Positions 3,083 to 60,096 of a DNA stretch of 60,229 nt are shown here, piece after piece. Under the pieces are notes generated by a model. It saw only the letters and a list, made by a program, of their open reading frames with translations. It had not been told where the DNA came from and searched no databases. The position numbers and the translations under genes are program-made. Position 1 is the stretch's first letter. Every line of letters begins with the position of its first letter. The stretch comes from an uncultured Planctomycetales bacterium (GTDB taxonomy: Bacteria; Omnitrophota; Gorgyraeia; Gygaellales; Profunditerraquicolaceae): positions 1 through 60,229 of the forward strand of contig CAZOGI010000009.1 in the NCBI GenBank assembly GCA_964579435.1, written 5' to 3'.

Positions 3083-3089
3083 GTCGCCT

Positions 3090-7369: not shown

Positions 7370-7390
7370 GGCAAAAACTCCGTCGTTTTC

Positions 7391-8002: not shown

Positions 8003-8032
8003 GGGAAAACCTCCTCGTTGTAAGACGAACCC

Positions 8033-21627: not shown

Positions 21628-21633
21628 AAGTAG

Positions 21634-21711
21634 TTTGGAGTTTGGAGTAGGGAATGTGGAGCGGCAAAACTCCGCACTCCCTACTCCCTACTCCCTACTC
21701 CTGGCTCCTGA
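21634..21711. repeat. Self-complementary heptad-repeat element: (NNNGGAG)4 - CGGCAAAA - (CTCCNNN)6
   Basis: Plus strand: TTTGGAG TTTGGAG TAGGGAA TGTGGAG | CGGCAAAA | CTCCGCA CTCCCTA CTCCCTA CTCCCTA CTCCTGG CTCCTGA. It fills the 85-nt spacer between the GT9 stop (21713) and the GT9-GT9 start (21627). Confidence 0.85.
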
Positions 21712-21712
21712 C

Positions 21713-22738: not shown

Positions 22739-22753
22739 TTTTCTCGACGCCCT

Positions 22754-26732: not shown

Positions 26733-26741
26733 ACGCTAATC

Positions 26742-26769
26742 TTGCAAGGATACGCTTTTCTGATATAAT
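26742..26769 (+). promoter_or_regulatory. Sigma70-type promoter TTGCAA-16-TATAAT; predicted start at the A of ATG 26776 (leaderless)
   Basis: -35 box at 26742-26747. Perfect -10 box at 26764-26769. Six nt (TCAACC) separate it from the ATG. Confidence 0.6.
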
Positions 26770-26775
26770 TCAACC

Positions 26776-27159
26776 ATGAGCGAAAGCACCAAAGAGCGGA
26801 CCTTGATCACCCTGCTCATTATCATAACCTCTGTCATCTTCGTCATCGCACTCGCCTCTTCGATCGTCTCGACGATACGCTCCCGCTTCACCGGCGAAAA
26901 CACCGTCCTGCCGGGAGAAGACGCGGCGACCGTCTGGGGCCAGACACCGGCGGCCGCAGGAGAGACAACACTGTTGCCCGGCACCAACACCACGGTGCCC
27001 GACACTACCGCCACCTATACGCCGCAGGAGCTGCAACGCCTTCAGCCGCAGCAGCCGGATTACCGGCGCGTGATCGACGGCAGCAAAGAAGAATACCGGG
27101 ATTTCATGGACCGCACCAGGAAGAAACAGGCCCTTTCTCCCGCAAACACCCTGCCCTAA
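26776..27159 (+). CDS. Small single-pass membrane protein, Pro/Thr-rich, unknown function (only plus-strand gene)
   Basis: 127 aa. TM 'LITLLIIITSVIFVIALASSIV'. Preceded by TTGCAA-16 nt-TATAAT with the ATG 6 nt after the -10 box. Its stop codon overlaps the stop of the convergent LpxL-like gene. Confidence 0.5.
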   Translation: MSESTKERTLITLLIIITSVIFVIALASSIVSTIRSRFTGENTVLPGEDAATVWGQTPAAAGETTLLPGTNTTVPDTTATYTPQELQRLQPQQPDYRRVIDGSKEEYRDFMDRTRKKQALSPANTLP

Positions 27160-31742: not shown

Positions 31743-34700
31743 TTATTTCCTGACGAATTTTTGTACTTCGGGCGCCGTGGCGCCTGATTCGATGAACAAC
31801 AACACCTCCTCGATATCTTTATCCGTCGCGCAGCAGCGTTCCTCTTCGCTGCGCAGGATGTCGGCGGCGCACGCCAACACCTTGGCCATATCCGCAGGGG
31901 CGACGTTATTGCCGAAACAAGAAGCGACGTAGCGCTTGAGCCGCTCTCCCGACGGAGCAATGCCGCCGGCCCAGAGCTGTTCGATCTGCCGCCATTCACC
32001 GCTCAGTTGCTGGGCAGAAACGGCGTCGCAGGCAGCGGAAAGATGCGCGATCGATAACACTGCCTGTTGCGTCACCACCGGCAGCGAACGGAAATCGATA
32101 CCCCCGGTCCGGTCCGGGGTTACGCCGTCAAGGGGAGCCAGCGGGGCAACCGGGCCCGAAGAAGACGGCCCCCGACGCTCCTGTCTTTCATCTCCCGGAT
32201 TCCCGCCCCCCTGCCGGTACGCAGCTTCCAGGTCGGCGCGCGACACTTCGGCCAACACAACAGAAGCCTGCAGCATGGCGCGCAACTCCTCAAGGGCAGA
32301 AACCGTATTGGCGTTGCCAAAATCGATGAACCGGACGTTCCCGGCCTCATCAATAAAGATATTCCCGGTCTGCAGCACGCCGTGATCCACCAAGTCCCCG
32401 TGGGTCAGTCCCAAGGCGTGCAGCGCCCCCAGCGCACGCATTACCTGCAAAGCGTACGTCCGCCGCTCCTGCGCAGATTCAACCTGCAGCAGCAGCTCCC
32501 GCAGCGCCACACCCGGCGCCGGGGCGGTATAAAGGACCCTGCGGCCGGCGGCATTGCGCAGGACGGCTGCCGGAACCGACAAACCCGCCTGGGCCGCCTG
32601 ATTCATCGCCGCCGCTTCCTCTTCAAACCCCGCCTCGATCATATCCGCCACCGCTTCAAAGCGCCGCAGGTCCGCAGACTTGACAAAGAACCGGCGCGTC
32701 CCGGCCTGCTCAAAACGCAGCGTCCCCTGCTCGACGATCCTGCCCTGATTTTCTTTGACCTTTACCAGAACCGCACCCTCCCGCAGCGGGTCGGAGGCAG
32801 CCACTCCCAGCAATGCGCGTAACGGTGCCTCGGCCTGAGGCGCCGCCGCAGGAAGCTCCTGCTCAGGCGGCTTTGCGCTCTTAAGCTCTGCCAGCAGCGC
32901 GGCAAGCGTCTCGGCGGCAGCTCCCTCCTGCCACAGCAACACTCCCCCTTCCAGGAGCGCCCATACCGCATCGTCCTTGAGACCGCCGAGAACGCCGGTT
33001 AAAGCCGCATGCTCCTGACGGCGCAATTCCGGATGCAGCAACACCGCGAATATGCTTTCCAGCAGCTGCATCCGTGTCGCCGCATCCTGCGCCGTTACTG
33101 CTTCATGCGGGGACCGCAGGAAATGCGAGATCAACTCGTTCTGGCGGGTCACGTCTATCATGCCCATACCCAGCGGTACCGGGCGGGGCTCATCCGAGGC
33201 GCCCTGCGTGGGCTGCGGATACGCTGCCGCCGGTTTCGCGGCGCCGGCCGCAGCGGCAACACGCATCGCCTGATGCCGCTCCTGCGCCCTGCGGCGCGTC
33301 TCTTCCCGCCGCTGGCTTATCGCCTGCTGCGCCTTGGAGGAGAGCGCCGCGAGGGCTCCCCGCAAATCGCCGTTGAGCTTTCCTTTGACCTGCAGATAGG
33401 CGATCTTAAAAAGCGCCTCCAGATACGTCTCGGCGGAAACTTCACTCTCAAGCGGCATATAACAGGGATAGTTCTCGGCCAGCGCTCCGGCTTCGGCCGA
33501 ATCCTCGATGCCGATAAAGGCCATGTCGACCTTGTACTTGCGCGGCCGCTGCGCCGGGGCTCCCCGCGCGTCCGGCTTCTGGTATTTGCCGTTACGAAAC
33601 GCGGCTATTTCCTGTTTCAGCTTCTCGCCCGTGCCCCGGCTTCCCGTCTCCTGTCCGTCGGTGAAAACAAGGACCAGATTCTTGGTCCGTTTGCCGGAAA
33701 CCGAGGGGAATTCGGTCTCGCTGAGGGTATCCAGAAGCGCGGGAGTCTCAATGCCGCCGCCGTCGCCGGTCGTCCAGATCCGGGAGAGGGCCTTTTCGAT
33801 AAGCGCCTTCTTCTGCCGGTGACCTTTTGCCCGCTGCCACTCCCTGAAATCGAAGAGCCGGGTCGTCTTGGTGCTGATCGTCATCAGGCCGATATTGAGG
33901 TCCGGGTTCTTGCGCGAAAGGGCCAGGAGCAGGGAAACGTACTGGTAGAGCATATCCTCGATCGCCTGCCGCAAGACGGTATTGCCCTGGATGCTGCCGC
34001 TGACATCGACCACGAAGAGCACGTTCTGCGCCAGGCCCTTGACCTCATCCTCGTACTGCGGGGCCAGGAACATGCGCGCCGGATCCCCCGCCAGCACCCC
34101 TTCGGGGTCGATCGCCACGCCGCCTTCGGTAACGTTGCGCATCCCGACGCTGTCGTCGGTGGCGTCGCGGCTGAAAAGACGGGCATACCGCTGCATCCAT
34201 TTCTGGACCGCAAGCGGCAGTTGCCGGCGCTGGGAAACCTCCATCTTCTTCTGCGGGTTCTGCTCGTCATCCACCAGCTTCTTGCCGCCTTCGAATTCAG
34301 GGACCTGCGCATCGGTCTCGGCGATCACCTCATCCTTGACATGCGGGGAAAAAGCCGGGCCGTACGAGAGGGGGATCTCGCTGACGTCCCCTTTGATATT
34401 GACCCTGACCGTCTTGGTGCGGTAATAACCGCGGTCAACGTGCGGGTAGTACTGTGCCGGATCCCGCCAGAAAGAGATCCCGCAGCGCCGCAATTCTTCG
34501 GAGGAAACCGATTCGACCGCGGAGACGATCGCACGGATACGGTCATCCTCGTAGCGCTCGATCAGCCGCAGGTTGAAACGGATCGCAAAGGCGTTCAGCA
34601 GCTCCCGCGTTGCCAGGGCATAGGCATCGTCGTGGGCCGACTTGTTCTTCTGAACCGGCGTGATGAAATTGGCGATGCTCGCTTTCAGGTAGGCCGCGGG

Positions 34701-37700
34701 GTCGGGAATCAACAGCACCGGGAACAGCACCGAGTAGAGCTCGACGTTTTGCTTGAGCCGCTTCGCTATCTCCCGGGAGAATTCCGTATGGCCCAGGCCG
34801 GTCTTTTCGGAGATGAAATGTCCCAGCTCGTGCGCCGCCACCTCAAGCTCGCGCGCCGCATCCCCGAGACCGATGACGACGATATTCTGGCCGTCGAAAT
34901 AACCGATCGCCCCGTCGGGCTTGCGGTCGATGACGACGATCTCGGGGACGACGTTATCCTTAAAGACCGCCCCGTAGACCTCATCGCCGAGGACCTCTTT
35001 GAGCTGGGCGCGGTCAAAGGAAACCGTGCGCAGGATCGGGGTCGCCCGAAAGCGGATAAAGTGGCTTCCCGCATACTGCACCCGGGTGATATTTTCCAGC
35101 AACACCCCGTTCTCCCGGGCGTTACGCTCTATCTTCTGCGTCGCTGCCAGGAGCTGCTCGACCGACTCGGCGGCGTTATATTCCTGAATGAGCTCGGCGA
35201 GCCGCACATCCAGCAGTGCCGCAACTTCCGCGGTGCGCGCCAGGAGCCGGGCATCAACCTGGTTCATGGCGATCCCCTTGAAGAGCTCCACGAGGACCTC
35301 TTCGGCAAAGAAGGCGTAGCATTTCGCCTTCTCAGGCGCGGTCTGGGCCCGGTCATAGGCCTTCTGTGCCGCATCCAGCGCCTTCTGCATTACTTGCGCA
35401 TCGAAGGAAAACTTTTCGGCCAGTTCCTGCGTTATCCGTTCCCGCTCCTCTTCGCTTATCTTTTTTTCCTCTTCCTCCTCTTTGCGTCGTTCCTCAGTAT
35501 CTTCGGCGACGCGGAAACGTTCCCTGATCTCGCCGGCCAGGGCGGAGAGCGGACGCGCCGCAGAAGGCGCCGGGATCTTCTGTACGCGCGCCGGCTCAAG
35601 CGGCACCTCGAAATACCCGCCGGACGCCGGGACGATATCGATCCCCTCCAGCGCCTTCTCCCGCGCGAAATACCCCTCGCCGCGGCGATACAACTCGTCG
35701 ATAATCCTGAGGATCTCCTCCCGGCTGAAGGTCTTCAGTGGTTCCCCGACATAAACCTTGCAGGCCTTGGCGCTGATCGCCGCCGGATAGTTAAAACGGT
35801 TCCCGGAGGCGCCGGAGCCGCCGTAGCGCTCGGCGGGGTTATAGGTAAGGATCACGCTCACTTCGGCGTCGACCTCGACGCGCAGCGTCTCCCCGTCGGG
35901 AGACGGGACGCTGAAAACGCGTTCGCCGCGGGCCAGGGCGTCGAGCAAATACCAGACATCGCGGGTGATATTGGCTTCGTCGATCAAGAGGCGCACGCGG
36001 TTGGAGGTCGCAAACCCTGCCGAGAGACGCCTACCGTTGACGGTGCCGACACTCAACAGGAATTCCTGTATGTTCATCTGCGCCTCGCCGGCGAAGGAGA
36101 GGCTTGCCGTCATATGCGAATCGCGCATCTGGCGGTGCGGGTTCAGGCGCACCACCGGCACGCCCTGAGCCCGGCTGAGCATATTGACGACGCTGGTCTT
36201 ACCGCTACCGGTCTCCCCCGGGACAAGAATCAGCCGGCTGGGAATGAGCCGGCCGCTTGCGGAGACCATCGTGCGCTCGGCTTCCAGGATCGCCCCGATC
36301 GCCTCCCGCAGTTCGGCAGCCGGATACATGACGTCCTCGGCGCCCATCTCCTGCCAGGGGAGGGCTCGTTTCTTGTTCGCCTCGGCCATCGGAAGCGGCA
36401 CACCGCCGACGGCGCTCATCAACTGCAGGCGCAATACGAGCGTTCTGCCCGTGCGGTAGACCGCCAGCCCAGGCGAAAGCTCAAGCGCCTTATCCGCCCG
36501 ATCGGGAAGCTTGGCGCCTTGCAAACGGTAGACATTCGCCGGGGTGATGACGGAAAACGAATCGCCGTCCTGGCGCACGATGATCCCGTTCTCCAGATGC
36601 GTCACCGCGCTTGCCCCGTCCTTAACCGCAACGGCGATATCATAAGCGGCGACCTCGGCCGCGGTGAAGGCCTTGCTCAGGGCCGCGGAGAGCTGCGTAT
36701 AATAGCGCTTCAGGGCCGCTGGTTTGATATCCGGGAAGAGCCCGCCCAAGAATCCTTTGAGCAGGATCTCCTCCTCGAAAAGCATCCGGTCGTCGGGATA
36801 GAGGCCGCGCAGATAAAAACTGCGCACCGCCCGCATCACGTACCATAACGGGTCCGTCTGTTTCTGTCCGGACGCCGCATCGTGCTGCTTGGCCAACTGC
36901 ACGCGCGCGGCCAGCTCCAGGATATCACGCAGGGAATAATGGTTGTCGGAAAGTTCAAACCGTTTCTCCCGGGTAAACTCCGCCGCCGCAGAGGCGATTC
37001 GCAGAAGCAACTGCACCTCATCGGCCGAAACATCGGGGAACTCATGCCGGATCACCTGCGTAACCTCCGCCGGATCCTGCGGGAACGCAAGGGCCAGTTT
37101 TTTGAAACGGTTCGCAAAAGGAGAGGAAAGCCGCTCGATATCGGAGGTGATCACCACGATATGCACCCACGAAGGCAGCGTGTATTCGACGAGCCTTCCC
37201 GACTCGTCTTTCATGACCACGGTATGCGTGGTCTGGAGGCGGTTAAGCTTTACCAGTTCGCTGGCGGGTATCGATTCAATGTTGGTGATCGCGATCACCG
37301 TCTCCTGGCCCGGGGTTTTCAGGGAGGCCAGCTCCGCGCTCTTGACCAGATGCCTGCCGATCTCGCCTCTGATCCGGCGGAACGTATCGGTGCGCGCCGT
37401 GCGCCGGCCGGCGCCGTCGAACTCGCCCGGAAACTCGAAGGATTCGCTCTCGAAGAGATGCTTTGCGGTGACGAACGGATGCCCTTCGACGATCTCCAGT
37501 CGCTTGCCGAAACGCAGGCACATGAGCTTGACCGCTTCCAGCCCGAATCCGCCTGCCGGCTGATTCACCAGCACCTGCCTGCCGCCGGCATCGACCATAT
37601 GCGCCAGGATGCTTACCGCATCGCGCATGCGCGCGGAGTTCTCCCAGAAAGCGACCTGCGTTTCATCGACAAAACGGGAACGTGCAGCCGTTACGGGCGC

Positions 37701-55700: not shown

Positions 55701-58700
55701 CTCGGTGTTACGGTGCAGCGCCTCATACCCCTTTTCCTCCATGACCTTGCAGAACTCTTTCCACGGCAGGCGATACAACGGCACCAGTTGCATCAGCGTC
55801 GACTCCTGTTCGAAAGCGGGGAGTGAAACGCCGCTTTTTCGTCCATCCGGCCGCTCGCCCCTGACAAGGCGGTAGAGCCGCTGCTTATAGATCATCGCCT
55901 CAAGCGGCCCCTCGGCAAAAAGTGCTTTTTTGAATTCCTCCTCCAGGACCATCGTCCGCTCGGCGAGTGTGCTATCCTTCAGGAGTATCAGCATAACATC
56001 CGGATGTATAAGGGTCCCCGCCTTGATCCTCCTGACTAATTCCTCCGCCGGCTGTGCGGCAACCAGCTCGCGCAATGCCTTGAGTGAACTATTCGCAAAC
56101 AGCGCCGGCCGGTTACGCGTCTCTCCCAAGAGCTCGACCAAAGACAGGAACGGCTCAAACGTCTGCGGCAACAGGATCTCGTGCTCAAGACAGTCCTTGA
56201 TCAATTCAAATCTGAGCCATTCGTTTCCGTTTTGCTGGCGGATAAAAGCGAATAATCTGCGCATGAGCCCTGTTTGTTGCCGGCTCACCATGCCGGCCTT
56301 GGCCAACGCGACAAACGTCGAATAATAACGGGCATCGAACGGTTGATTGCCGGTAAGCTCTTTTAAAAAGGAAACGTCTAAAAACCCGAGACCAAGCTTC
56401 TCTTCGAGCACCACATCGACCAATTCCGCGAACGAGCGCACCGGATCCCGGTACTGCAGAGAGATCAGGAAAGACTCGTAGGCCTTGCGATTCTTCTCGG
56501 TTATCACTCCCGCCTTGACCAGTTTCTGTATCGCGGAGAGTAGACCCTCATGCATATCGAGGGAACCGGCGACAGTATTGAAAACCAGATTGGCCAGCGC
56601 CCTGCCGCGTGCGGTCCGGGCAGGAGGAGTTACCTTCTTACGCAGCGGTTCGACGGCCTTTTCGATCCTCTCTTTTATGCCCCGGACTGCTGCAGGCCGC
56701 GCGTCAGATTGGGCCTTTGCGCCAATAGCCCGCAGCGCCTCTTGCGGCGACTCATGCACCTGGCGGTACTGCTTGTCCATGATGGCACAGAACTCTTTCC
56801 AAGGAAGACGGTAGATGACCGCCAGATCGGGGGAAAGCTTCTTGCCGGTATAAGCTGGTAACGATTTCTTGCCTTCCTGCATACGGTAGGTGCGCTGTTT
56901 CAACTCCATTGCCTTAAGCGTATCAGCGCTCAGCACCGCCTCGGCATAAACCCCACTGATGTCCTCATCCCCTCGTGCGAATGGAGTATCTCCCAGGATC
57001 AAAGCCCAATCCTGGTCGTGGACATCGGCATGGAAAGAAGCACCTTGACGTTCAAGATAAGCGTTGACCGCATAGAGAACCTCCGACCATTGGTCGGAAT
57101 CATGCAGCGTCTGAATGACCGCGCGCGCCAGCGCAGGCGGCAAGACAGGCGGACTGCCATAACAGAACACATACGAACTGTCCAGGACAAAGGTCAGTAT
57201 CTCGGGCAAGAGAGCGTTTCCCTCATAAAGTTCCATCAGCTGTTCAAGGAGCTTTGGATTCCAGCAGGCTGCGATGCCCAGGATCGCCCCAGACTTATCA
57301 TCCAGGTGGATCTTTTCCCCTTTCAAAACGCCCGGCAGCACCTGATTCAATACGGCGGTGTTTGAAGCGGCGATCTTAGCCAGGGCAGGGTAGAAATAAG
57401 TACTGATATTGGCCGTCAAATTCAGGTTGCTTGACGATATTCCGGCGCCAAGGCGCCGTGAAAACAGCTGTTCGAGCAACAATCTGCCATCTTCTTTTGT
57501 CGGGGTCAGAGGCACAGGGTTTTTTGCCAGCGCCGCCTGCAGGAGGACCGCGGATTTAAACGCCGCATCTTCGCGGATTTCATCAACCGCGTCGCCGTTT
57601 ATGTAATTGAGGATCGTGATATCGCTGCGGCAGACCGCGGCAACGAGCCTGGAGAGCAGGACGCCGCGCTCGGTGCCGCGATAGGGATAGACTGCTTCGG
57701 CAAACAGCGCGGAGAATGCATTGACCGTCACCTCCGCCAGGCGGGAGTCCCGCTCATAGGCGGCTGCGAGCGCCTGGGCGAGTGCGTACTTGAGCCGCGC
57801 ATCATCGGTACTCACCAGGCAATCGCTCAAAACAACGGCATCGGACACCGATACGGCTGCGGCACGGTCTTGAGCGAGGAGAGCGTTGAGCTGTTTGGCA
57901 AGGACTAATGCGGCTGCGGGATTCTTAAGCGAACCGCGGATCCGCTTTATCACAGCGGAGGCCGTCGTTGCTTGCGAAGCCGTTCTGGTTGGCCGGGCCG
58001 TCCCTGCGTTCATAGAACCGTCGGGCTGCCGCTCTAAAGCGTCGATAAACGGATTCTGGCGTAACGAAACGAGCGCCCCTAAAGCCTGGCGCAACTCTTG
58101 AATCGGACGCTTTGACTGGCTGAGCAACCGCGCGCACAGCGCCGCTTCTGCGGCCATGCTCTTTTCATTGACCCGCTCTCCCGCCTCATGGCGCAGCTCA
58201 TGGAATAACCCGGTAACGAACAAGGCGCGGGCAAGTACGGGATCCATGGAAAAGAGCGCCTTGTTGACCCCGATAAAACCGTTTTTGCGGCAATCCTCAA
58301 AAAGATGCTGCGACTTGTTTTCATCGAGGAGCGCAAGCATGATCTTTTTGCCGCGCAAACCGGTCAAGTCAATCCGGGATTTGCTGCCCGATGCCTCAGC
58401 CCATCGCTCCAAGGCCGCAAATGCCTCCTGAAGGAGCCCGGCCAGCTCTGTGCGGCCCACCCCCAGCTTCTGACGCAGCAGTTTTTCCTCATCGGCAGTC
58501 ACGGTAAAAGCAACCGCTTTTGCCCCGCGTGAGGTCGAGATCTCGATAACCTGCTGCGCCTTGCCGGCGCGCGAGGCCTGCTCCCGGCGGACGTCAACCG
58601 CAGAGGCGGCTTTGGTGAGCTTCAGGGCTTCGAAGTGTTCGGCCGCGGGCGATTCCTCATCGCTTTGCCGGGGAGGTGCCGGTAACGGCGCCGCTGCCCC

Positions 58701-59906
58701 GGGCGCCGCACGGGGCGCGTCCGCAGGACCGAGGGAAACGCCGCGCGCCGAATAATCGGCCGCGCTTCCGCCGGTGGCAGAAGCCCCCCGCAGATGCGGG
58801 CGCTGATTCAAAACCGCAGGCAATGCCCCGGTCACCGGGCCCGGCAATTGGTGCATCGAAGGGATAAGCCCTTCGGCCAGATCGATGCCGCCGGAAAAAT
58901 AGGTGCGCACGGTCTTGCCGTACGGGGTGGAGTGGTTTTCGGTAAGCTTGTATTCGCCCCGGCTGAACGATTCCCGGTAGGCGTTAAAGTAGGAAGCGGC
59001 CTGATAGGGCGTCTGCGCGCCCAATCCGCTGAGGTTGCGCGAATCGATGAGCGAGCCGTAGACAGAGCGGTTCCCCCGGTATTTATCCTTGAACCACTGC
59101 GCCAGGATCAGAGAATAATACACCTGCCGCAAAAGCGCATACTCAGGCGCGGTATTCACCCGCTTGGTGAGCTTGGGCAGGATCAGCTCGCGCATCAGGC
59201 GGGCAGAATAATCGTTGAGCGTTTTGAGGCGCTCATCGTCGAATGCGTACACCGCCGAGTCCTTGAGGTGATCCTGCTCAAGGAGCACCTTGAGGGTCGC
59301 CTTGTAAATATAGGCGTTCTGCGGCGTCTCCCGGATGACGATCTCGGCGGGCACGATCCAGGGACGCGCCAGGGTGGGGATGGAAAGCTCGGTCCCGGCA
59401 AAAAGCTCTCCTGCCTTGTCATAAAGCTTCTTCCAGTACTCTTTGCCTTCAATGCTCGCAGGATTCGTGAAGGAGGCCGTGTCTTTTTTAAGCTGCAGGT
59501 CCGCCTCAAGCAGGATACGGCCGGCTTCTGTCCTGGCGAGAGAAGGATCGATAATCGAATCGGCGGAATCCGGACGAAGGTTTACCCAAAAACTTTCTTT
59601 GGGGAGGCTGACGCCGACAAAAAAATGCTCCAGCAGCTGCGGGATAGCCGTCTCAAGATCCTTGTCCTTGAGCATCGCGGTGCCGCGGTCAAGGAGAAGG
59701 GAAAAACTGTTTTCCCGGGAGTCGTACGAAAGAAAACGCAAATGCGGCGGGCGGAATGTCTTCTGGGTAAGATCCCGATGGAGAGCCTGAAGATGCAAGG
59801 CGACGTTAAGCTCTGCGGCAACCTGGGCAAAGCCGGTTTGCTGAAACGAGAGCACGCCGCACAAAACGGCGGAAATGATTTTTGTAATAATAGAATGTCG
59901 GCGCAT
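31743..59906 (-). CDS. Giant 9,387-aa multidomain protein: signal-like N-terminus, HExxH, 12 helical super-repeats, 6x AAA+ (MoxR/midasin-type), HExxH, vWA/MIDAS, kinase-like domain
   Basis: Single open frame of 28,164 nt with no stop. Recognisable motifs occur along its entire length (see sub-features). All other-frame ORFs in this span are short or Arg/Pro-rich shadows. Confidence 0.9.
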   Translation of the reverse strand: MRRHSIITKIISAVLCGVLSFQQTGFAQVAAELNVALHLQALHRDLTQKTFRPPHLRFLSYDSRENSFSLLLDRGTAMLKDKDLETAIPQLLEHFFVGVSLPKESFWVNLRPDSADSIIDPSLARTEAGRILLEADLQLKKDTASFTNPASIEGKEYWKKLYDKAGELFAGTELSIPTLARPWIVPAEIVIRETPQNAYIYKATLKVLLEQDHLKDSAVYAFDDERLKTLNDYSARLMRELILPKLTKRVNTAPEYALLRQVYYSLILAQWFKDKYRGNRSVYGSLIDSRNLSGLGAQTPYQAASYFNAYRESFSRGEYKLTENHSTPYGKTVRTYFSGGIDLAEGLIPSMHQLPGPVTGALPAVLNQRPHLRGASATGGSAADYSARGVSLGPADAPRAAPGAAAPLPAPPRQSDEESPAAEHFEALKLTKAASAVDVRREQASRAGKAQQVIEISTSRGAKAVAFTVTADEEKLLRQKLGVGRTELAGLLQEAFAALERWAEASGSKSRIDLTGLRGKKIMLALLDENKSQHLFEDCRKNGFIGVNKALFSMDPVLARALFVTGLFHELRHEAGERVNEKSMAAEAALCARLLSQSKRPIQELRQALGALVSLRQNPFIDALERQPDGSMNAGTARPTRTASQATTASAVIKRIRGSLKNPAAALVLAKQLNALLAQDRAAAVSVSDAVVLSDCLVSTDDARLKYALAQALAAAYERDSRLAEVTVNAFSALFAEAVYPYRGTERGVLLSRLVAAVCRSDITILNYINGDAVDEIREDAAFKSAVLLQAALAKNPVPLTPTKEDGRLLLEQLFSRRLGAGISSSNLNLTANISTYFYPALAKIAASNTAVLNQVLPGVLKGEKIHLDDKSGAILGIAACWNPKLLEQLMELYEGNALLPEILTFVLDSSYVFCYGSPPVLPPALARAVIQTLHDSDQWSEVLYAVNAYLERQGASFHADVHDQDWALILGDTPFARGDEDISGVYAEAVLSADTLKAMELKQRTYRMQEGKKSLPAYTGKKLSPDLAVIYRLPWKEFCAIMDKQYRQVHESPQEALRAIGAKAQSDARPAAVRGIKERIEKAVEPLRKKVTPPARTARGRALANLVFNTVAGSLDMHEGLLSAIQKLVKAGVITEKNRKAYESFLISLQYRDPVRSFAELVDVVLEEKLGLGFLDVSFLKELTGNQPFDARYYSTFVALAKAGMVSRQQTGLMRRLFAFIRQQNGNEWLRFELIKDCLEHEILLPQTFEPFLSLVELLGETRNRPALFANSSLKALRELVAAQPAEELVRRIKAGTLIHPDVMLILLKDSTLAERTMVLEEEFKKALFAEGPLEAMIYKQRLYRLVRGERPDGRKSGVSLPAFEQESTLMQLVPLYRLPWKEFCKVMEEKGYEALHRNTEVVRLPAATQPRTRSRAAATVQWEKALFDAVQDRIGINFHDKLRFAIHGLVTAGAVNDKNLKAAEALLMTIHRTAPMRAWAVYHQLGELAEAVRKKKLDRSCLDLVFLAAIAEAGASSAEEGFAAVQAFAGAGLISGENIRQIQTLFTRLAKQAQQYAGFAYQTLGILASAGVVTADTAEQASHLLVAVIGTRKEPDTGQAFNTLNELVKAGAVTAANLAAVESLFKALGAGRTDWIFEKRLQGYRETIAQRLSQGSDVIHPDVALIMLREQAFGPVTVDDSNRELYLEALFAEDALPAMRLKQRVYRQMQASRRKQLKEYEGADILRPLARIYSLPWNEFCKVMEEQGYDSLHAGAQPKKPVAGTRRDLAAELVAVVSLKKFGLQEQTIDFLKPGYQELVRRGIVTADTVDEIRSLLTEVTEKAGELGGEALFAFHYLVLAGCVTKGNLKEVKSLLTGLAALKDDARLWAYSKLADLAHKKQIVAADNLILVRRLFLSCAKGSAAGDASHLFDYIGELAEAGVATAGNVAQVQALMEELINNTGDRSGLDDPYAADDALLPLAKAKAVTADNIPETIALFRKLSLVQPKWNFRALAEHAAEITAQQIKDGTLINPDVELILLRKGAVPTDQRWWLAPSGLDEDEGDLESDEELYGRAVLSRDPHLAMVMKQLLYRRWAWQRKKQELPAYEDKAALAKLVRIYSLPWNEFCKVMEEQGYDAVHTGVQPKKPVAGTRRDLVAELVAAASKRAFNRPEQSIEFLADGYKQLVSSGVVTEANVREVCSLVETLAALPGKHATNALLALDGLISAECVTAGNLKAVRALLAGLASIEGENRAQAYAELGKLASQRLLVSPDNLDAVRSLYMSCTRGRAAQETYRLLPAITALAKEGVATSANVSSIQQLIRELVSNTQDENGIAYSPAAGGALFALVKAKAVTADTIPETIALLRKLYHGQQQWNFAALEAHAQEITPQQIKEGTVISPDVELILLRTGAVIGGDRWWLGVDGDAKDAEGDARLYQEALFSRDPYQAMVMKQRLYRRWILSREKKSLAAHEDREALAKIVRIYSLPWEEFCKVMEEQGYEVLHKEGGAAGEQRVADGQAAVAMQQSEKRLLGAMRALGAGKKFHVHLRRYFHEFLVSGVISAQEPQAAQQLMTSLVDKLIRGRRAGVDADWDTVLWAFAALHGLVTAGAVTRNNLSSVIDRVIVAINDNAGREGFSRLRDLASTVKEQGLNPAVLDLELIACVAQEADADVFWQLSKMAEQVKQKELDQRLFDPSLLSGFARHASSGGDAYAALVLLAEQVKERNLDPGWLDPGFLVRLAEGAQGRLSEVLGMWVDMLTDEKISEGEQAQLKKLFTVLVDKSGENTYRAFSSLQLVFGAVVETGAEGMFDIVFLTALAEEFTADADLAFRICAELIRRKALTPKTLPALRQIFHMFGIANARWNLEAFLRQAAQITPERLTEENFVNADVRLILLREGAFGGAAIGDGHGALYQEALFSRDAHQAMVMKQRVYRQWQAQQGKEFAAHEDPLILAQMVRIYSLPWNEFCKVMEERGYEALHRDPGAVLSLPGSSPAMGQEAESVLAAQIQGLKMLLGNETGLDLRCKSLVERMKADRGIKLSSPELETLVSFIRRAASDKEKFSLTTVAANAAVSNPLLVPLILDALIRHADDPGTVKVLAWALFYDIYEMKLRFSQEQVNALLEVGIRVPEAAGSIASALEGAFSFNADLRVSAGQLEKILALVSDPRFAWGKVSTLVHLALTADTSLKVPPQAQAAIIDAIRQKGKDAGARDAQLWMRIIRDDPALGVSEQDATFVFGQLGSDGALLAFTELAGLMLERNPALSPAPEQINPLIVFLGSRGGMSLEAERSIVTETLRRAMLNHPALIEAVLGAIAEATFTFSEGIELALGEAIGEAIAQSGIQPERLIVLIERDNRDPGMKLLYQVALRGALARNPALRLTPEQVRRVLALFDNTQNVRPRVALAGILGRAACNSGETAQILLQTLKERLQSTSTDSPLLGLALARSLSQSQALREKALRLFAGADAFSQIWGLSRAFGHAAQFNPALIDEYIERSGDPALSADARRFFLYALGASLEFARLTFEEAPPLPSPQDALRIVRTLYAAGDTLGIKNGLKNYLEISKKPLHEHLQDEEWARILGDTPELTEDDARRQAYLGVLCEPDMVRAMILKQRVYRALQETTRGSSLPAYEDPAVLREALPFYRLPWQQFCEVMDKHFELVHTAPRQAQARLAPVATAVTRPVPPAAPGMAQEVWEELSSDAKSLAYKDSILAALDALAGARLLTPQTRAQVVSLMRAVLANVDQGVNFVFATESIEQVAEIAYAIAGGRIDPALAKLEFLTGLARHNEVFCRISFESFLHLAQALRGRSVGPADIEKLFGIIYTRPHVAAASLRALGELSQKVNTHEASPAVFSFPLLYAIAEHSGDDASATYAFLGVLGMAAAKGQVDVRCIDPAVLAEMGAHTATGIHPALTELFNLGEAVSTGKIPGDFLEKELLTALIRIDGKKAANSLQSLKLLLLDPGIARLVPGALTPALLKDMIAHSGGRPGYALQALQILSEAGAVSADNIGEAAALSASLAASGRPAASLGALDLMLEAQTITADKIKNNTLFSPDVFLMLIKTLPPEPLDQDYDELLEGAEFGELYARALATGDVALALSLKQKLYLMQAQKPGLAETDFKALDITTREFLLPIYRLPWAEFCKVMEEKGYEAVHQDPALFSRFDQKVSGAVGPVSAQAPEESLTSVLFELARSRVGVSYHEAMRAAIAELVRSGSIKESDGQAVAALFSSMTDESIPQGSVQANLKAFADLARGVRQRQLDPVVLDLTLLSTFASFTSDSFLYYSALQQLAEKVRSKGLDRLVLDRAYLLSLAQKGAASDDYQSLGALAEAGVITEASFDRVKALIALISERARRNSFFANDCLRRLAASGAVTPDNLPQVQKLFEALCVTRPDWNFSAFGIPAAHTVTAQMITDETVIHPDVRLILLREQAFGGMPLDDRYEALYTEALFSKDAVAAMILKQRLYRQSQASKGRILAAHEEPTLLAQMVRIYGLPWDEFCTVMEGKGYETGHRNPSQLIKAAPGAVSQEQVVEEFFKAVQKYLTPEDRATFRERYVVPMINNGALTVENRQQVIRMFAALGKQPGTNLLDVILVFRFLADKQLVTPDTLPAIERLFTMLNIAQGEKHRHGLGMLNVLAYNGAVTVNNFAAIQAFLEDILKGIAEADALQIYNLMSNLAEARYITPANLSEVAELFKELFRYRDSNVLLAANVALGSLVRSGAATAGNVPQVLALFKGLRAGVPEWNFGALTSRAETLSAAELAAGAVFNSDVQLILLSQERSGGDFAIISGDEEAYIDALLSPDAHKAMLFKQRKYCQIQRRSAGRKLKEYANPAVLAALIGLYRSPWSQFCKAIEEHGYDAIHRNPQVLALPVPANPLAVDKDEFYRSLEGSVDAGEISPDAVEGQRRLRECADALVESGAADAANRDAVTKMIATVIIENRGFAFAPLRVLTAMARAGFPVREHIGELQELLVSAVRQGAADFEADEAYMRLEGLVNDVAGKRLDRSVLDLGLLRLIAEKSANKGFEAYSILALAAEYGLVTAETLGAWKSVIEALLRFANLRPGNLGALAGFVSAQDKAYLLERLKDNRLILPNVIEILLVDPDFVSEITGDLEAEYQAAVFAETDAAAAAFKQKVYRLKHARETRELLSAQPVVPEALIFYRIPWKEFCRFMRNDFEAVHQEPRAAWERFSQTTPAPVTVEPPQTQETSKKPADAPLVPQAVFSSPEHARAHQLLQQMAADALGASRDVDAASEKAKELLALLKAQRGVQLTREEATVLLNVCLETNVTVHMAYSMFVEALSEAAVNNVELAPLLLHAIEKLTTGSFERSLFHEGLARVLTAHESVRLNEAETTLLVNSLRQGGSSIYKMTGPLERALEGAGRCEITPAHLDTLLSMLVRGYRGDNSSKEALRRVVALALARNPDLLDRVVVALKGDAIEYHLDDVSQYVSEAVGIAASERPELIGRILQLLRHDQPLYVRHGLGDALRSGLNRNQEITVSDADIMMLIGAIIAQRTVATDYAGALGEALSRQKNFRFPEDRFRTLLSFFKPDANWAWMLLADALKYGIAHTPALAQICLQAVRQDPSNTALRIAVLHMLAGGLTGNPGIVLDRDALEMLRPEDQDEQGRSYYRSFCVAAVVNNPALAEESLRLIEDADASNEVRTFHAHVLQSALESMRLPAQAALRFVRGLAKAKMLDVAKEAAKQHLRKPGNSLHGDSLQEDWALVFGDAPFADLRQWWGQGEYIETAIAGDVRRAMRLKLDIYYETVMHDRPPKTSVLDKLPASKREVLLAFYRLPWKEFCALMQQDFVLIHRDPQGALQKYRAQIEQAQPRLSPVSAIDQTASAKAAEEALAQELDRLIDQELDRLCGAGKNGDPDRLLYYYIDIGMRYSGVTEGMDFVAFKEEAKRVARDPNAAKKMLPQHAILLYRDLRQSLRQQYPRFEALLKPKVSAHEFKAIQLLSKEIAETLQEAAESGRLHLRGSITFREVHRFNKVFSRYYLQNPEEAVSRLFDLFQLTAWTVYGRYIGRGEEHMFGAVMREVFLRKQYAPLYVTASVSNRGELTGSKLTDLFSRGTFERTPLPPSALESQSQVIVAAQRASACGLPLMLFTPSNHFANMAAESLSLQDNTLVFAVPMSGFSQVGEFFGRSLPDPATHRPQWSRGIIARMMEVARQNPDQQVYLVLENIEYASGDLRMALHQVLLERKVTLSNEKAADGRMIGEQPLPKNLQIVMTMHEDADIGDESFMDRSSGFFLGVPGTKEIRAYLARRFKLSGKAAETLVGLWEDLQGHPVLRERYLLQDVIQIASYVAGRLQEGAPESALSGLIKQEAWLHLSSKVPAPEQEEIFPELRSLLGLKETPGFTVGLSPSGDRIDAGGISIPVSPESAFGQFLSRHRGIPFKDALEGFVSQASGGKRDYFMTPTEERIFCLLARVHRFAPSKFIFLMGSPGGGKTTIARVFADVVGAQPYEYTLNKEIDLGFFRGGLGLSRQGISLRVPDYWRAQGEDNAFFIYNEADTRVFFLQWLWPTLAGRRVRFGAEFPGQGFDPDDPLEAVAFGRDQLHIATGNMREDGISGAVAAMMPAVYSMERSAEEMNEITLRLMESWLRKSGIAESSAETRRHSQSLAAVYNRFNRGVLEGEFVSSREITPRQVERFCALYASLLANGMPAQRAFEILLQVVFVRMWENEFDRMVAAGILAGVTGDLAPPTEAELLSFLRDFSLDIPLLVFDNQTVGFPRIRAAILPQAGTVREHTVNISRFHTKAKLIGGLSKTPEDGEPSNKLGVLSSLILQAHLDERQHCAWVQGYLDLNPQVAPLLNEFFQTNWLQVDDIIDDDLIDSVIGRLGVSGAFERVRGAYEQATGTTLAVSLEALFAAERRSLVRYLIGFKPSNLRFVILGEANEEITLHPADVDRFFAVNLAQTIDGPWIASRLEAGFSGAVPARLRTAAAACARAAWELFEAQKDAGLYAYNRLGAPNVDAFLAEINRRAEEGSLDEVLLRLLAYHLLGSGLAAEEEAAGEGAAPRDFRKEFLDRIGLEAGAVRYQREFALRESALRPGERRVWYGITATLGGRTYRLGEVQTPYASARQLDEYGRYEFIRDGVAERVRLQAPLQNLLAQEAAKLLFERAGLPVVLEGDPGGGKTTSSHEIALVSARESFEEGMYKWIDLSALLGAVTLRGREIALNALDKDASGRYLLDFLRAYSEGGVYIADEGRVSDAAGHLLRWLVTVARQDAIDLGDFHPGLQGVVIKRHPRFSFVITQNYHFKTEGRKELPQSADELCGKIRVDNILSYEDARSLIDYYLEGAVFPAELKMQLAHLHNKLSLSHPQKRTISPRDLIEIVQQLRREPRRIKQALYEQITVNYAEGLLDPAERQEVTRIVREFFPDYRPLSPRKAPVTAARSRFVDETQVAFWENSARMRDAVSILAHMVDAGGRQVLVNQPAGGFGLEAVKLMCLRFGKRLEIVEGHPFVTAKHLFESESFEFPGEFDGAGRRTARTDTFRRIRGEIGRHLVKSAELASLKTPGQETVIAITNIESIPASELVKLNRLQTTHTVVMKDESGRLVEYTLPSWVHIVVITSDIERLSSPFANRFKKLALAFPQDPAEVTQVIRHEFPDVSADEVQLLLRIASAAAEFTREKRFELSDNHYSLRDILELAARVQLAKQHDAASGQKQTDPLWYVMRAVRSFYLRGLYPDDRMLFEEEILLKGFLGGLFPDIKPAALKRYYTQLSAALSKAFTAAEVAAYDIAVAVKDGASAVTHLENGIIVRQDGDSFSVITPANVYRLQGAKLPDRADKALELSPGLAVYRTGRTLVLRLQLMSAVGGVPLPMAEANKKRALPWQEMGAEDVMYPAAELREAIGAILEAERTMVSASGRLIPSRLILVPGETGSGKTSVVNMLSRAQGVPVVRLNPHRQMRDSHMTASLSFAGEAQMNIQEFLLSVGTVNGRRLSAGFATSNRVRLLIDEANITRDVWYLLDALARGERVFSVPSPDGETLRVEVDAEVSVILTYNPAERYGGSGASGNRFNYPAAISAKACKVYVGEPLKTFSREEILRIIDELYRRGEGYFAREKALEGIDIVPASGGYFEVPLEPARVQKIPAPSAARPLSALAGEIRERFRVAEDTEERRKEEEEEKKISEEERERITQELAEKFSFDAQVMQKALDAAQKAYDRAQTAPEKAKCYAFFAEEVLVELFKGIAMNQVDARLLARTAEVAALLDVRLAELIQEYNAAESVEQLLAATQKIERNARENGVLLENITRVQYAGSHFIRFRATPILRTVSFDRAQLKEVLGDEVYGAVFKDNVVPEIVVIDRKPDGAIGYFDGQNIVVIGLGDAARELEVAAHELGHFISEKTGLGHTEFSREIAKRLKQNVELYSVLFPVLLIPDPAAYLKASIANFITPVQKNKSAHDDAYALATRELLNAFAIRFNLRLIERYEDDRIRAIVSAVESVSSEELRRCGISFWRDPAQYYPHVDRGYYRTKTVRVNIKGDVSEIPLSYGPAFSPHVKDEVIAETDAQVPEFEGGKKLVDDEQNPQKKMEVSQRRQLPLAVQKWMQRYARLFSRDATDDSVGMRNVTEGGVAIDPEGVLAGDPARMFLAPQYEDEVKGLAQNVLFVVDVSGSIQGNTVLRQAIEDMLYQYVSLLLALSRKNPDLNIGLMTISTKTTRLFDFREWQRAKGHRQKKALIEKALSRIWTTGDGGGIETPALLDTLSETEFPSVSGKRTKNLVLVFTDGQETGSRGTGEKLKQEIAAFRNGKYQKPDARGAPAQRPRKYKVDMAFIGIEDSAEAGALAENYPCYMPLESEVSAETYLEALFKIAYLQVKGKLNGDLRGALAALSSKAQQAISQRREETRRRAQERHQAMRVAAAAGAAKPAAAYPQPTQGASDEPRPVPLGMGMIDVTRQNELISHFLRSPHEAVTAQDAATRMQLLESIFAVLLHPELRRQEHAALTGVLGGLKDDAVWALLEGGVLLWQEGAAAETLAALLAELKSAKPPEQELPAAAPQAEAPLRALLGVAASDPLREGAVLVKVKENQGRIVEQGTLRFEQAGTRRFFVKSADLRRFEAVADMIEAGFEEEAAAMNQAAQAGLSVPAAVLRNAAGRRVLYTAPAPGVALRELLLQVESAQERRTYALQVMRALGALHALGLTHGDLVDHGVLQTGNIFIDEAGNVRFIDFGNANTVSALEELRAMLQASVVLAEVSRADLEAAYRQGGGNPGDERQERRGPSSSGPVAPLAPLDGVTPDRTGGIDFRSLPVVTQQAVLSIAHLSAACDAVSAQQLSGEWRQIEQLWAGGIAPSGERLKRYVASCFGNNVAPADMAKVLACAADILRSEEERCCATDKDIEEVLLFIESGATAPEVQKFVRK
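32270..32740 (-). other. Minimal protein-kinase-like domain (RIO/Kdo/APH-like)
   Basis: 'RRFFVKS' (Lys codon 32679-32681), 'EEEAAAM', 'LHALGLTHGDLVDHGVLQTGNIFI' (HGDL 32391-32402), 'VRFIDFGNA' (DFG 32316-32324). Confidence 0.65.
33500..34040 (-). other. von Willebrand factor A domain with MIDAS motif
   Basis: 'VLFVVDVSGSIQG' (DxSxS at 33993-34007), 'LVLVFTDGQETGS', 'VDMAFIGIED'. Confidence 0.8.
34818..34832 (-). other. HExxH motif 2 (HELGH) in the giant protein
   Basis: '...GAIGYFDGQNIVVIGLGDAARELEVAAHELGHFISE'. Codons read directly from the sequence. Confidence 0.6.
35410..35510 (-). other. Short Glu/Lys-rich charged segment after the AAA+ array
   Basis: 'AEDTEERRKEEEEEKKISEEERERITQELAEKF'. 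Confidence 0.7.
35680..41610 (-). other. Six tandem AAA+ modules (AAA_5 / MoxR-dynein-midasin type)
   Basis: Canonical Walker A: 'GSPGGGKTT' (40533-40559), 'GDPGGGKTT' (38467-38493), 'GETGSGKTS' (36192-36218). Matching Walker B: 'FFIYNEAD', 'VYIADEG', 'LLIDEAN'. Degenerate modules sit between them: 'LMLFTPSNHF...LVLENIEYA' (~41590), 'LLVFDNQTVG' (~39700), 'VNQPAGGFGLE...IAITNIE' (~37560). Spacing is ~330-380 aa per module. Confidence 0.7.
42501..58050 (-). repeat. Protein-level super-repeat array: 12 units of 321-685 aa, each ending in a conserved junction module containing [LIS]PWxxFC
   Basis: The [LIS]PWxxFC codons lie at 56787-56807, 55749-55769, 54678-54698, 53571-53591, 52473-52493, 51042-51062, 48987-49007, 47505-47525, 46428-46448, 45372-45392, 44409-44429 and 42501-42521. 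The upstream boundary (~58050) is approximate. Confidence 0.85.
58188..58202 (-). other. HExxH motif 1 (HELRH) in the giant protein
   Basis: '...NGFIGVNKALF...ALFVTGLFHELRHEAGE'. Codons read directly from the plus strand (ATG GCG CAG CTC ATG reverse-complemented). Confidence 0.6.
59826..59906 (-). other. Signal-peptide-like / signal-anchor N-terminus of the giant protein
   Basis: 'MRRHSIITK-IISAVLCGVLSF-QQTGFA|QV': basic n-region, hydrophobic h-region, small-residue c-region. Confidence 0.6.
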
Positions 59907-60096
59907 AGAAAAAGGGGGTCGCTGAGGTTGATCGTCCGAGGGACAATAACCCCGCCTAAGGTTAAGAATCGTGTTTCTGATTGAAAAATGTGGATCCGGT
60001 GAATCAGCCGAACAGCTATTACATTATTAATATTACTGATTGGAGGCCTTGAAACAAGGTTAAAAACGGGGTTTTCGGAAAGCGGTTGCTGCGGCT

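Follow-up and report, generated by a model that had tools for sequence, protein, structure and literature searches.

Midasin (Rea1), a protein of ~4,900 aa that acts in eukaryotic ribosome assembly, has six AAA_5-type modules in one chain; P-loops are present in all six modules of Rea1, several of which are able to bind ATP. Dynein heavy chain and RNF213 are built around a concatenated ring in which only some modules carry catalytic motifs, the active modules being AAA1-4 in dynein and AAA3-4 in RNF213. Bacteria have MoxR-type AAA+ proteins coupled to partners with a von Willebrand factor A (vWA) domain, and the mechanism of these couples, including transmission via helical and charged linkers, has been summarized by Kaur et al. 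(PMC7159879). The chain of six AAA modules has been seen as a product of early eukaryotes that arose from single-module MoxR (PMC3495828), and our literature searches for a bacterial, prokaryotic or archaeal midasin found nothing relevant. Here we describe a giant open reading frame (ORF) on the minus strand, at positions 31743..59906, of contig CAZOGI010000009.1 (assembly GCA_964579435.1), whose product joins a block of AAA_5-type modules to a vWA domain in a single chain. The whole 60,229-nt stretch that was analysed is referred to as the window; nucleotide positions are those of the window, all features described lie on its minus strand, and amino acids are numbered from the start of the giant protein.

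Very long genes have been reported before from Omnitrophota ('Archaeovorins' and dockerin-type giants; bioRxiv 10.1101/2023.11.21.568195 and 10.64898/2026.06.07.730766). These published giants are rich in transmembrane helices and have SecA-like, dockerin or multi-enzyme content; AAA_5 is among their frequent domains, and midasin, dynein and vWA are unmentioned in both reports. The protein described here is similar to them in phylum context (as judged by its closest homologues), in the great length of its ORF and in its N-terminal signal. However, those giants reach at least 30,000 aa, contain numerous transmembrane helices and carry domains of SecA/DEAD-like or dockerin type, whereas the present protein has 9,387 aa and none of these features. 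A preliminary description of this DNA had recognized no described family in the overall architecture, and our searches agree with it: Pfam, NCBIfam, PADLOC and the literature gave no description, no curated family in Pfam, NCBIfam or PADLOC took in the whole architecture, and no paper describing it was found in the literature searches.

An intact gene of 9,387 codons

The ORF begins with ATG and continues for 9,387 codons to a single terminal stop, as one uninterrupted frame of 28.2 kb, just as had been reported initially. Given its base composition, the chance of 9,387 stop-free codons is ~1e-140, and the two other frames of the minus strand contain 282 and 307 stops in the same interval. A coding pattern extends over its full length: the G+C contents of the three codon positions (GC1/GC2/GC3) were ~0.65/0.43/0.62-0.78 in each 1,000-codon block, in agreement with the neighbouring genes of this strand, and by the GC3 test the minus-strand ORFs of the window are real genes. 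The family N-terminal domain (NTD) and C-terminal domain (CTD) described below lie exactly at the 2 ends of the ORF and, because these are the canonical ends of an NTD-cargo-CTD class of proteins, the completeness of the gene is strongly evidenced. Assemblers can be misled by repeats, and one might suppose that the frame is an assembly chimera or a decaying pseudogene that is open by accident. We find this hardly credible in view of the stop-free length, the uniform coding signature, the terminal domains at the exact ORF ends and a core that recurs, collinear and with 40% identity, in assemblies independent of this one; furthermore, the longest internal DNA repeat of the gene is of 143 nt at 89% identity, so that collapse or expansion by the assembler is unlikely. 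We conclude that the ORF is a true gene, with both ends present, from a diderm bacterium of Omnitrophota type.

The usual explanations of giant bacterial genes did not apply. No GGxGxD motif was found in the protein, and a Pfam and NCBIfam search of protein tiles returned no Ig, cadherin, RTX, NRPS or PKS family. Readings of the ORF as an adhesin/RTX protein or as an NRPS/PKS were rejected on these grounds, and the absence of their hallmarks that had been remarked upon at the outset is confirmed by both the motif count and the tiles.

The six-module AAA block

The family core starts with a pre-ring segment, aa 5884-6094 (41625..42257); from ~aa 5884 onward, 3 relatives (L002, L004 and P0126) are collinear with the giant protein at 40% identity. 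Adjoining this segment, at aa 6095-8085 (35652..41624), are six modules of AAA_5 type, as identified by Pfam, hhalign and Midasin profile matches, which we designate M0 (aa 6095-6270), Ma (6430-6610), Mb (6720-6935), Mc (7125-7310), Md (7435-7615) and Me (7880-8060). They form three pairs, in each of which the degenerate module comes first and the P-loop module second. Strict Walker A motifs number only three, at aa 6450, 7142 and 7897, spaced by ~700 aa, the length of two AAA modules. The six-module AAA+ motor of the preliminary description is therefore correct as to the number of modules, but only three of these have P-loops, and they alternate with three that are degenerate.

Among Pfam families, AAA_5 matched at aa 6446 with 25.5 bits (cut-off 22), and in the protein tiles a match at aa 7894-8029 was nearly full-length. 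AAA_lid_7, the 'Midasin AAA lid', was found twice, at aa 6625-6702 (25.2 bits against a cut-off of 22.7) and at aa 7614-7678. The modules were then compared with one another by hhalign, as profiles from a 21-sequence core alignment built from family relatives. All three pairings of P-loop modules were highly significant (Ma with Mc, probability 99.1%, E 4.5e-19; Ma with Me, 98.6%, E 6.8e-16; Mc with Me, 99.3%, E 4e-20), as were those of the degenerate modules (M0 with Mb, 98.7%, E 1.8e-16; M0 with Md, 97.3%, E 2.3e-11; Mb with Md, 95.3%, E 2.4e-8), and the 2 classes were linked through Md and Me (71%, E 3.6e-5, over 156 columns). In an hhalign self-scan of a first, shallow core alignment the degenerate modules were not significant, and the 21-sequence alignment was needed. 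Of four homologues, 2 had AAA_5 as the highest-ranking Pfam family for their M0 (best E 0.0024); the M0 of the giant protein covers positions 24-125 of the 139 in the AAA_5 profile. When units of two modules were compared (aa 6095-6719, 6720-7434 and 7435-8085), 500-570 columns could be aligned at a probability of 99.4-99.9%, with E from 1e-31 to 3e-21. Because these two-module units align with one another, the six AAA_5-type modules can be ascribed to triplication of a (degenerate + P-loop) pair.

The pattern of retained motifs is a property of the whole family. M0, Mb and Md are without Walker A in all members. Mc keeps GGGKT, DEG and the sensor-1 N, and Me keeps G.TG.[GA]K[TS], DEAN and NP.E; since Walker A, Walker B (DE) and sensor-1 are retained, Mc and Me are predicted to hydrolyze ATP. 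Ma also retains Walker A, with a Walker B that is mostly N/S-E, and its ATP binding would probably be regulatory.

An AlphaFold2 (AF2) model of aa 6085-7284, made from three sequences, was poor (mean pLDDT 50.8); its best-resolved part was M0, which had the beta-alpha-beta order of an AAA core. In a Foldseek comparison of this model with the PDB, the top 50 matches were all dynein motor domains (E down to 3e-9, ~1,200 columns), at a TM-score of only ~0.13. We regard these matches as weak support for AAA modules in series and not as support for a ring.

Relationship to midasin, MoxR and dynein

In a single-sequence search of the PDB with aa 6301-8334, Midasin chains were the sole AAA+ matches; they were weak (E 9e-5), and none lay outside the AAA modules. 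Mc and Me were also searched against the PDB as twelve-sequence family profiles. The Mc profile matched Midasin with E 4e-49 in six stretches, the best of which covered positions 7-198 of 208; its next best matches, to CbbQ and NorQ (~3e-6) and the MoxR-type structure 2r44 (1e-3), each extended over ~50 residues. With the Me profile, Midasin was again the best match (E 1.3e-38, best stretch 12-167 of 200 positions), followed by NorQ (1e-6) and dynein (5e-6) over ~40-50 residues each. The Midasin E-values partly sum several modules; still, it is only with Midasin that a whole module could be aligned. In these profile comparisons Midasin is far nearer to the P-loop modules than are the single-module ATPases of the PDB (NorQ, CbbQ and the MoxR type).

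The likeness to Midasin/Rea1 extends to the arrangement of the protein, with six AAA_5-type modules in one chain (the degenerate ones moderately supported), AAA_lid_7 lids, and a vWA domain with a metal ion-dependent adhesion site (MIDAS) that lies C-terminal of the putative ring and is reached via a charged segment. There are also clear differences. Three of the six modules lack the P-loop, and the block is a triplicated pair; where Rea1 has a helical linker of ~1,700 aa and a D/E-rich region between ring and MIDAS, only ~540 aa separate Me from the vWA domain here, made up of an HExxH domain and, before it, a segment of 83 aa rich in E, K and R; the putative ring is preceded by ~6,000 aa that comprise the signal, the NTD and the repeats, and a kinase-like domain and the CTD come after it. 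The vWA domain is no nearer to that of Midasin than to integrin I domains. Rea1 works on pre-60S particles via assembly factors with ubiquitin-like (UBL) domains; in a bacterial host, neither 60S nor UBL substrates would be expected.

With the MoxR-vWA couples (RavA-ViaA, CbbQ-CbbO, NorQ-NorD and the MoxR-DUF58/BatA operons), the giant protein has in common the AAA+ clade and the association with a substrate-gripping MIDAS vWA partner. Those systems, however, are single-module homohexamers with the vWA domain on a separate chain, whereas here six heterogeneous modules and the vWA domain are in one chain, and sequence similarity to NorQ, CbbQ and 2r44 does not extend beyond the P-loop region. 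Dynein heavy chain and RNF213 offer the parallel of a concatenated ring in which catalytic motifs are confined to some modules; the giant protein differs from them in lacking a stalk, a microtubule-binding domain, a dynein linker and an E3 module, and its alternating order of degenerate and active modules is unlike that of either (the likeness to dynein comes from the low-confidence model).

One further sequence was noted: P0165, a protein of 4,005 aa recorded as 'AAA family ATPase [Thermoproteota archaeon]'. AAA_5 matched it in full six times (E 3e-132) and, with Midasin lids and a C-terminal vWA domain in addition, its architecture is canonically midasin-like; it could be either an archaeal midasin relative or a eukaryotic contaminant.

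Domains beyond the AAA block

A linker rich in E, K and R, of which more than 50% of the residues are charged, follows the AAA block at aa 8106-8188 (35343..35591). It leads into the HExxH domain, aa 8200-8560 (34227..35309), in which HELGH at aa 8359-8363 (34818-34832) is followed downstream by NxE in the family alignment. The elements G..G, HExxH, NxE, P and Y of this domain were invariant in 15 sequences, including proteins of ~1,150 aa (P0159, P0166, P0169, P0174 and similar) that match the giant protein only here, at aa 8197-8550. By its motif, the domain may be a gluzincin-like peptidase. DUF58, a vWA-like MoxR partner, was present at the end of all four full-length ~1,150-aa proteins that were scanned, and these HExxH-DUF58 proteins may act on their own as partners of MoxR that carry a peptidase-like domain. 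Hydrophobic segments were seen by eye on either side of their HExxH domain.

The vWA domain, aa 8628-8860 (33327..34025), matched Pfam VWA with E 2.7e-9 and 38 bits (cut-off 23.8). Its MIDAS is complete: DxSxS at aa 8634-8638 (nt 33993-34007) is followed by the T and the D, and these residues are invariant or nearly so in 12 family members. The vWA/MIDAS assignment made at first sight is thus secure. The kinase-like domain that had been named along with it needs qualification. At aa 9040-9225 (32232..32789) there is what appears to be a minimal kinase fold of the Bud32/RIO/Kdo type, with a candidate catalytic Lys in FFVKS, HGD...N with a 6-residue insertion, and DFG. Profile matches to it were all below the family cut-offs (Pkinase, 28 bits against a cut-off of 31.7; RIO1, Kdo and ABC1 likewise), and the match to Bud32 (E 1e-7, 31 bits) was far under the equivalog cut-off. 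The kinase-like region keeps HGD...N...DFG and, among the homologues examined, is an addition in this member only; the others have different tails after the vWA domain.

Family and taxonomic range

A word-indexed search with aa 7700-9387 returned four proteins, all of them fragments, of 31-41% identity, one being from Candidatus Omnitrophus magneticus. A scan of one genome per species (185,579 species) gave four loci, three in Omnitrophota and one in a metagenome-assembled genome (MAG) labelled Deltaproteobacteria. When aa 7860-8900 were compared exhaustively, by HMMER, with a set of 1.84 billion representatives, 69 proteins were found at E<=1e-3, of which 28 were at E<=1e-30; full-length family members among these matches are of 4,000-7,600 aa. 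About 25 sequences are collinear over the whole core (~3,000 aa, aa 5884-8860). Those relatives that carry names are 'AAA family ATPase' or 'hypothetical protein' of Omnitrophota, with one from a Chlamydiota MAG, and none has been characterized. These matches place the giant protein in a rare family rather than leaving it as an isolated oddity.

One homologous ORF, of more than 8,657 aa (L004), has a hydrophobic N-terminus and an NTD 31% identical to that of the giant protein. The core of L004 follows aa 5884-8859 collinearly, at 40% identity, and its repeat-like units come after the core and not before it. The same NTD was found in the relatives P0128, P0140, P0144, P0150 and P0188, and the same CTD in P0129, P0144 and P0188.

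Terminal domains common across Omnitrophota

The N-terminus, aa 1-27 (59826..59906), resembles a signal peptide, with MRRH, a hydrophobic stretch and QQTGFA/Q. As seen by eye, the sequence MRRHSIITKIISAVLCGVLSFQQTGFA/QV has a basic n-region, an h-region of ~16 hydrophobic residues and small residues at -3/-1 (the slash marks the putative cleavage position), and in relatives the region is alike nearly letter for letter ('LCFxLxFEQSGFAQ[VI]A'). The export-like signal noted in the preliminary description is upheld by these features. After the signal, a scan of the whole protein found no second 19-residue stretch at a Kyte-Doolittle value of 1.6, and hence no transmembrane-like segment.

The NTD that follows, aa 28-345 (58872..59825; ~320 aa), had no Pfam or NCBIfam match and is common to many Omnitrophota proteins, in which coverage ends at ~aa 340-400. 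With the first 960 aa as query we found at least 681 proteins (a lower bound, 8,000 candidates having been scored) that align from residue 1 and are 50-60% identical over the first ~340-400 residues. Nearly all of the named matches are from Omnitrophota, and most are of 600-1,700 aa with C-terminal parts unrelated to one another: methyltransferases, HEAT or TPR repeats, GGDEF, phosphoglycerate kinase, M48 peptidase, radical SAM, PPDK-type domains and metallophosphoesterase. An AF2 model of the NTD was fairly confident (pLDDT 76.7, pTM 0.71), and its fold had no match in the PDB or BFVD at E<=0.001. The best fold match, to the pore-forming toxin NheA, was non-significant (E 0.47), and we rejected this resemblance.

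At the other end of the protein is a 'GGIDFR' CTD of ~120 aa, aa 9265-9387 (31746..32114), with the consensus 'GGIDFRxLPIVTQ...EW..I...GI.PS..RIKEY...CI.DILR.EEE'. It is present in 79 of the 120 NTD proteins among the matches listed (P0005-P0124), and a hidden Markov model (HMM) made from 78 such CTDs gave 110 bits on aa 9265-9384 of the giant protein. A word-indexed CTD search of a collection of 5.8 billion proteins gave no match, and the word index probably misses this domain. No Pfam family matched the NTD or CTD of the giant protein, and no published description of an NTD-cargo-GGIDFR class was found. By these matches the giant ORF is assigned to that class as one member of it. Conserved termini around a highly variable cargo are reminiscent, by analogy only, of the cargo of the type IX secretion system (T9SS) of Bacteroidota. 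The present class differs in having a conserved N-terminal domain of ~320 aa as well, and in a CTD that, from sequence alone, looks helical and cysteine-bearing and not like a beta-sandwich; no T9SS genes were seen.

The repeat array and the region before it

Between the NTD and the core lie an unannotated region, aa 346-961 (57024..58871), and an array of ~355-aa repeats, aa 962-5870 (42297..57023), which is recognizable both from repeats at the protein level and from a DNA motif that encodes the repeat junction and occurs 12 times in the gene. An iterated HMM detected ~13 copies of the unit, 9 full and 4 partial, with pairwise identities of 25-52%. Each unit starts with a conserved ~80-aa head, A..KQ..Y...Y..PW..FC...H, whose residues are invariant in 9 copies and include one conserved Cys and one His per head (for example at aa ~1000-1060 and 1700-1760); variable sub-repeats of ~38 aa were seen by eye after each head. 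The array is interrupted twice, at aa ~3000-3559 and ~5240-5719, by segments that are alike and are also similar to aa 658-960 in the unannotated region. No significant match to the unit was found among Pfam or PDB sequence profiles. The repeat head was also noted in relatives, on either side of the core.

Of the ~5,200 aa of helical repeats first described, the repeats themselves are confirmed, at aa 962-5870, but their helical character is suggested by composition only (A 13%, L 12%, E 8%, R 7%). Similarly, the two HExxH motifs that had been counted both exist, and only that at aa 8359 is conserved. The other, HELRH at aa 569-573 (58188-58202), lies in the unannotated region, which is not conserved, and ~0.2 HExxH would be expected by chance from the composition of the protein; we rejected it as a functional site and consider it probably a chance occurrence.

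Neighbouring genes

The genes of the window all lie on the minus strand. In order, those downstream from the giant gene are genes for a pyridoxal phosphate (PLP)-dependent enzyme, LpxK, a fusion of lipid A acyltransferase with an Elm1-like protein, and GT4 and GT9 glycosyltransferases; then a protein with a C-terminus like that of type II secretion system (T2SS) protein G, a histidine kinase, and KdsB-, KdsA-, KdsD- and KdsC-type genes of Kdo biosynthesis; and then LptC/A-like and LptB-like (ABC-ATPase) proteins, trigger factor, ClpP, a PilZ-T2SSE ATPase and phosphoglycerate dehydrogenase. This is a lipopolysaccharide (LPS)/Kdo/Lpt neighbourhood, and the host is therefore diderm. No dedicated partner or secretion system adjoining the giant ORF was seen among the window genes; T2SS-like genes are at distances of 12 kb and 26 kb.

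Several of these genes are unusual. The LPS cluster (19579-29105) contains three fusions, namely lipid A acyltransferase-Elm1-like (27156-29105), GT4-GT9 heptosyltransferase (24618-26732) and a double GT9 (19579-21627). A 545-aa ORF at 18020-19657 starts in a signal-like manner, after an M near residue 26, and has a T2SS protein G (pseudopilin) domain at its C-terminus; it also contains a domain without annotation and long stretches rich in Ala and Pro. By eye, the usual N-terminal prepilin leader and hydrophobic helix are lacking. At 4793-6178 a PilZ (c-di-GMP-binding) domain is fused to an ATPase of the T2SS/type IV pilus protein E type; PilZ genes just downstream of Omnitrophota giant genes were described by West-Roberts et al. 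At 1304-3082 is an ORF of 592 aa that had no match in Pfam; its N-terminus is signal-like, and it contains several cysteines. In the 15 nt before the start codon of the giant gene (CCCCCTTTTTCT ATG; upstream region 59907-59966), a Shine-Dalgarno-like motif was not seen by eye. A weak terminator-like hairpin at 60013-59994, upstream of the gene, suggests that the giant gene starts its own transcript.

Discussion

Our preferred interpretation, to which we give an even chance, is that the giant protein is a single-chain MoxR/midasin-type AAA+-vWA remodelling machine, carried on a giant scaffold and either addressed to the envelope or exported. In such a machine, the six modules would close into one pseudo-hexameric ring, and its nucleotide-driven movements would pass via the charged helical linker to a 'hand' made up of the HExxH domain and the vWA/MIDAS domain, by analogy with MoxR-vWA couples and Rea1. 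The MIDAS metal would grip an acidic residue of a target protein, which would be pulled, remodelled or released, and the gluzincin-like HExxH...E domain beside the vWA domain may cut the target so gripped. The Bud32/RIO-like kinase would be accessory and peculiar to this member. The ~4,900-aa repeat array may be a scaffold, a spacer or a docking platform, and the signal with NTD and the GGIDFR CTD would be address modules, in use across Omnitrophota, that place differing cargoes at or beyond the envelope. The initial designation of the locus as an undescribed system is fair, but a wholly new kind of system is unsupported, the core being a recognizable MoxR/midasin-type AAA+ block with a vWA domain.

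Several observations weigh against the interpretation of the protein as a remodelling machine. The AAA nature of M0, Mb and Md is moderately founded, on the 71% hhalign link, weak Pfam matches and a poor model, and PDB profile searches with four- and five-sequence alignments of the degenerate modules gave no match. The sole model of the putative ring is of low confidence (pLDDT 50.8, TM-score ~0.13), so that closure of the ring is proposed only. A homologue of the ~1,700-aa Rea1 linker was not detected in the giant protein; the vWA domain is not specifically midasin-like, its nearest solved relatives being integrin I domains (E 1e-6); and the HExxH domain is without detectable similarity to solved peptidases and gave nothing significant in either Pfam or the PDB (Zn_peptidase_2, E 0.037; oligopeptidase A, E 2). 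Finally, a Sec-type signal with no later transmembrane segment implies export to a compartment free of ATP, which conflicts with the presence of an ATPase and a kinase. The same paradox of topology exists for other Omnitrophota giants (10.64898/2026.06.07.730766).

This last conflict would be resolved if the protein met its ATP in prey, that is, if it were an exported effector of a predatory or parasitic cell, with the terminal domains as secretion modules that deliver the machine and the kinase onto or into prey or host. The motor chemistry would be the same as in the interpretation preferred above, and the place and target would differ, host complexes being dismantled or remodelled where ATP is available. 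Such a role is consistent with a signal-like N-terminus conserved almost residue by residue, with the absence of a membrane anchor, and with the flanking of cytoplasm-type enzymes (phosphoglycerate kinase, methyltransferases, radical SAM, GGDEF and PPDK-type domains) by the NTD and CTD in other proteins, and Omnitrophota giants have been read in published work as secreted or surface effectors of predatory cells. We nevertheless consider it rather unlikely. The transport of a folded ATPase of 1 MDa is without precedent, the neighbouring genes are for LPS biosynthesis and housekeeping with no secretion-system gene adjoining (the T2SS-like genes being those 12 and 26 kb away), and the NheA toxin as best fold match of the NTD, which would otherwise favour an effector, has an E of 0.47.

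The HExxH domain and the kinase have also been considered as clues to other functions. A self-processing polyprotein, in which the HExxH domain cuts at the repeat heads and frees ~355-aa helical units and an AAA-vWA machine, would account for the strongly conserved ~80-aa head at the start of each repeat and for the invariance of the catalytic-type residues of HExxH, and cleavage mediated by a peptidase has been proposed for other Omnitrophota giants (West-Roberts et al.). In relatives, however, the repeats may be before or after the core, or few, whereas the HExxH domain is always beside the vWA domain, and it occurs also in the ~1,150-aa proteins that have no repeats; self-processing thus seems to us distinctly improbable. 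We attach even less credence to a biological-conflict (anti-phage or abortive) MoxR-vWA ternary system, with the AAA-vWA part as a threshold switch and the kinase or peptidase as effector. Couples of MoxR and vWA with peptidase or kinase-like effectors are known (PMC7159879), and weak matches to bpMoxR and CATRA-C in Pfam and to kinases in PADLOC could be cited in its favour, but all of these matches are sub-threshold and generic, to the P-loop or to the kinase catalytic loop. Partners of the VMAP, iSTAND or beta-propeller kind are absent, the surrounding genes are housekeeping ones, and the P-loop modules are, as described above, far nearer to Midasin than to single-module MoxR-type ATPases. 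A known defence system could be rejected, because PADLOC gave only generic P-loop and kinase matches.

Single-chain rings of six AAA modules, as in dynein, midasin and RNF213, are usually held to be eukaryotic inventions (PMC3495828), and we have found a bacterial family with concatenated modules. As a tentative and, in our estimation, doubtful extension, this family may consist of prokaryotic single-chain midasin-type six-AAA rings with a MIDAS hand, which would be either a relative of the midasin/dynein ancestor or the product of a convergent triplication, and whose motor would perhaps work outside the cytoplasm of the producer, for example in or on prey. Midasin-like active modules, a fused MIDAS domain and a history of (degenerate + active) x 3 are found together, and the origin of such rings is therefore open to testing by phylogenies and structures. 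If the family were indeed a relative of the midasin/dynein ancestor, it would challenge the origin of the six-AAA chain in early eukaryotes from single-module MoxR (PMC3495828). The Omnitrophota class defined here by a conserved signal and NTD, any cargo, and a GGIDFR CTD was absent from the literature that we searched, and it bears on the question of where the cytoplasm-type enzymes of Omnitrophota giants do their work.

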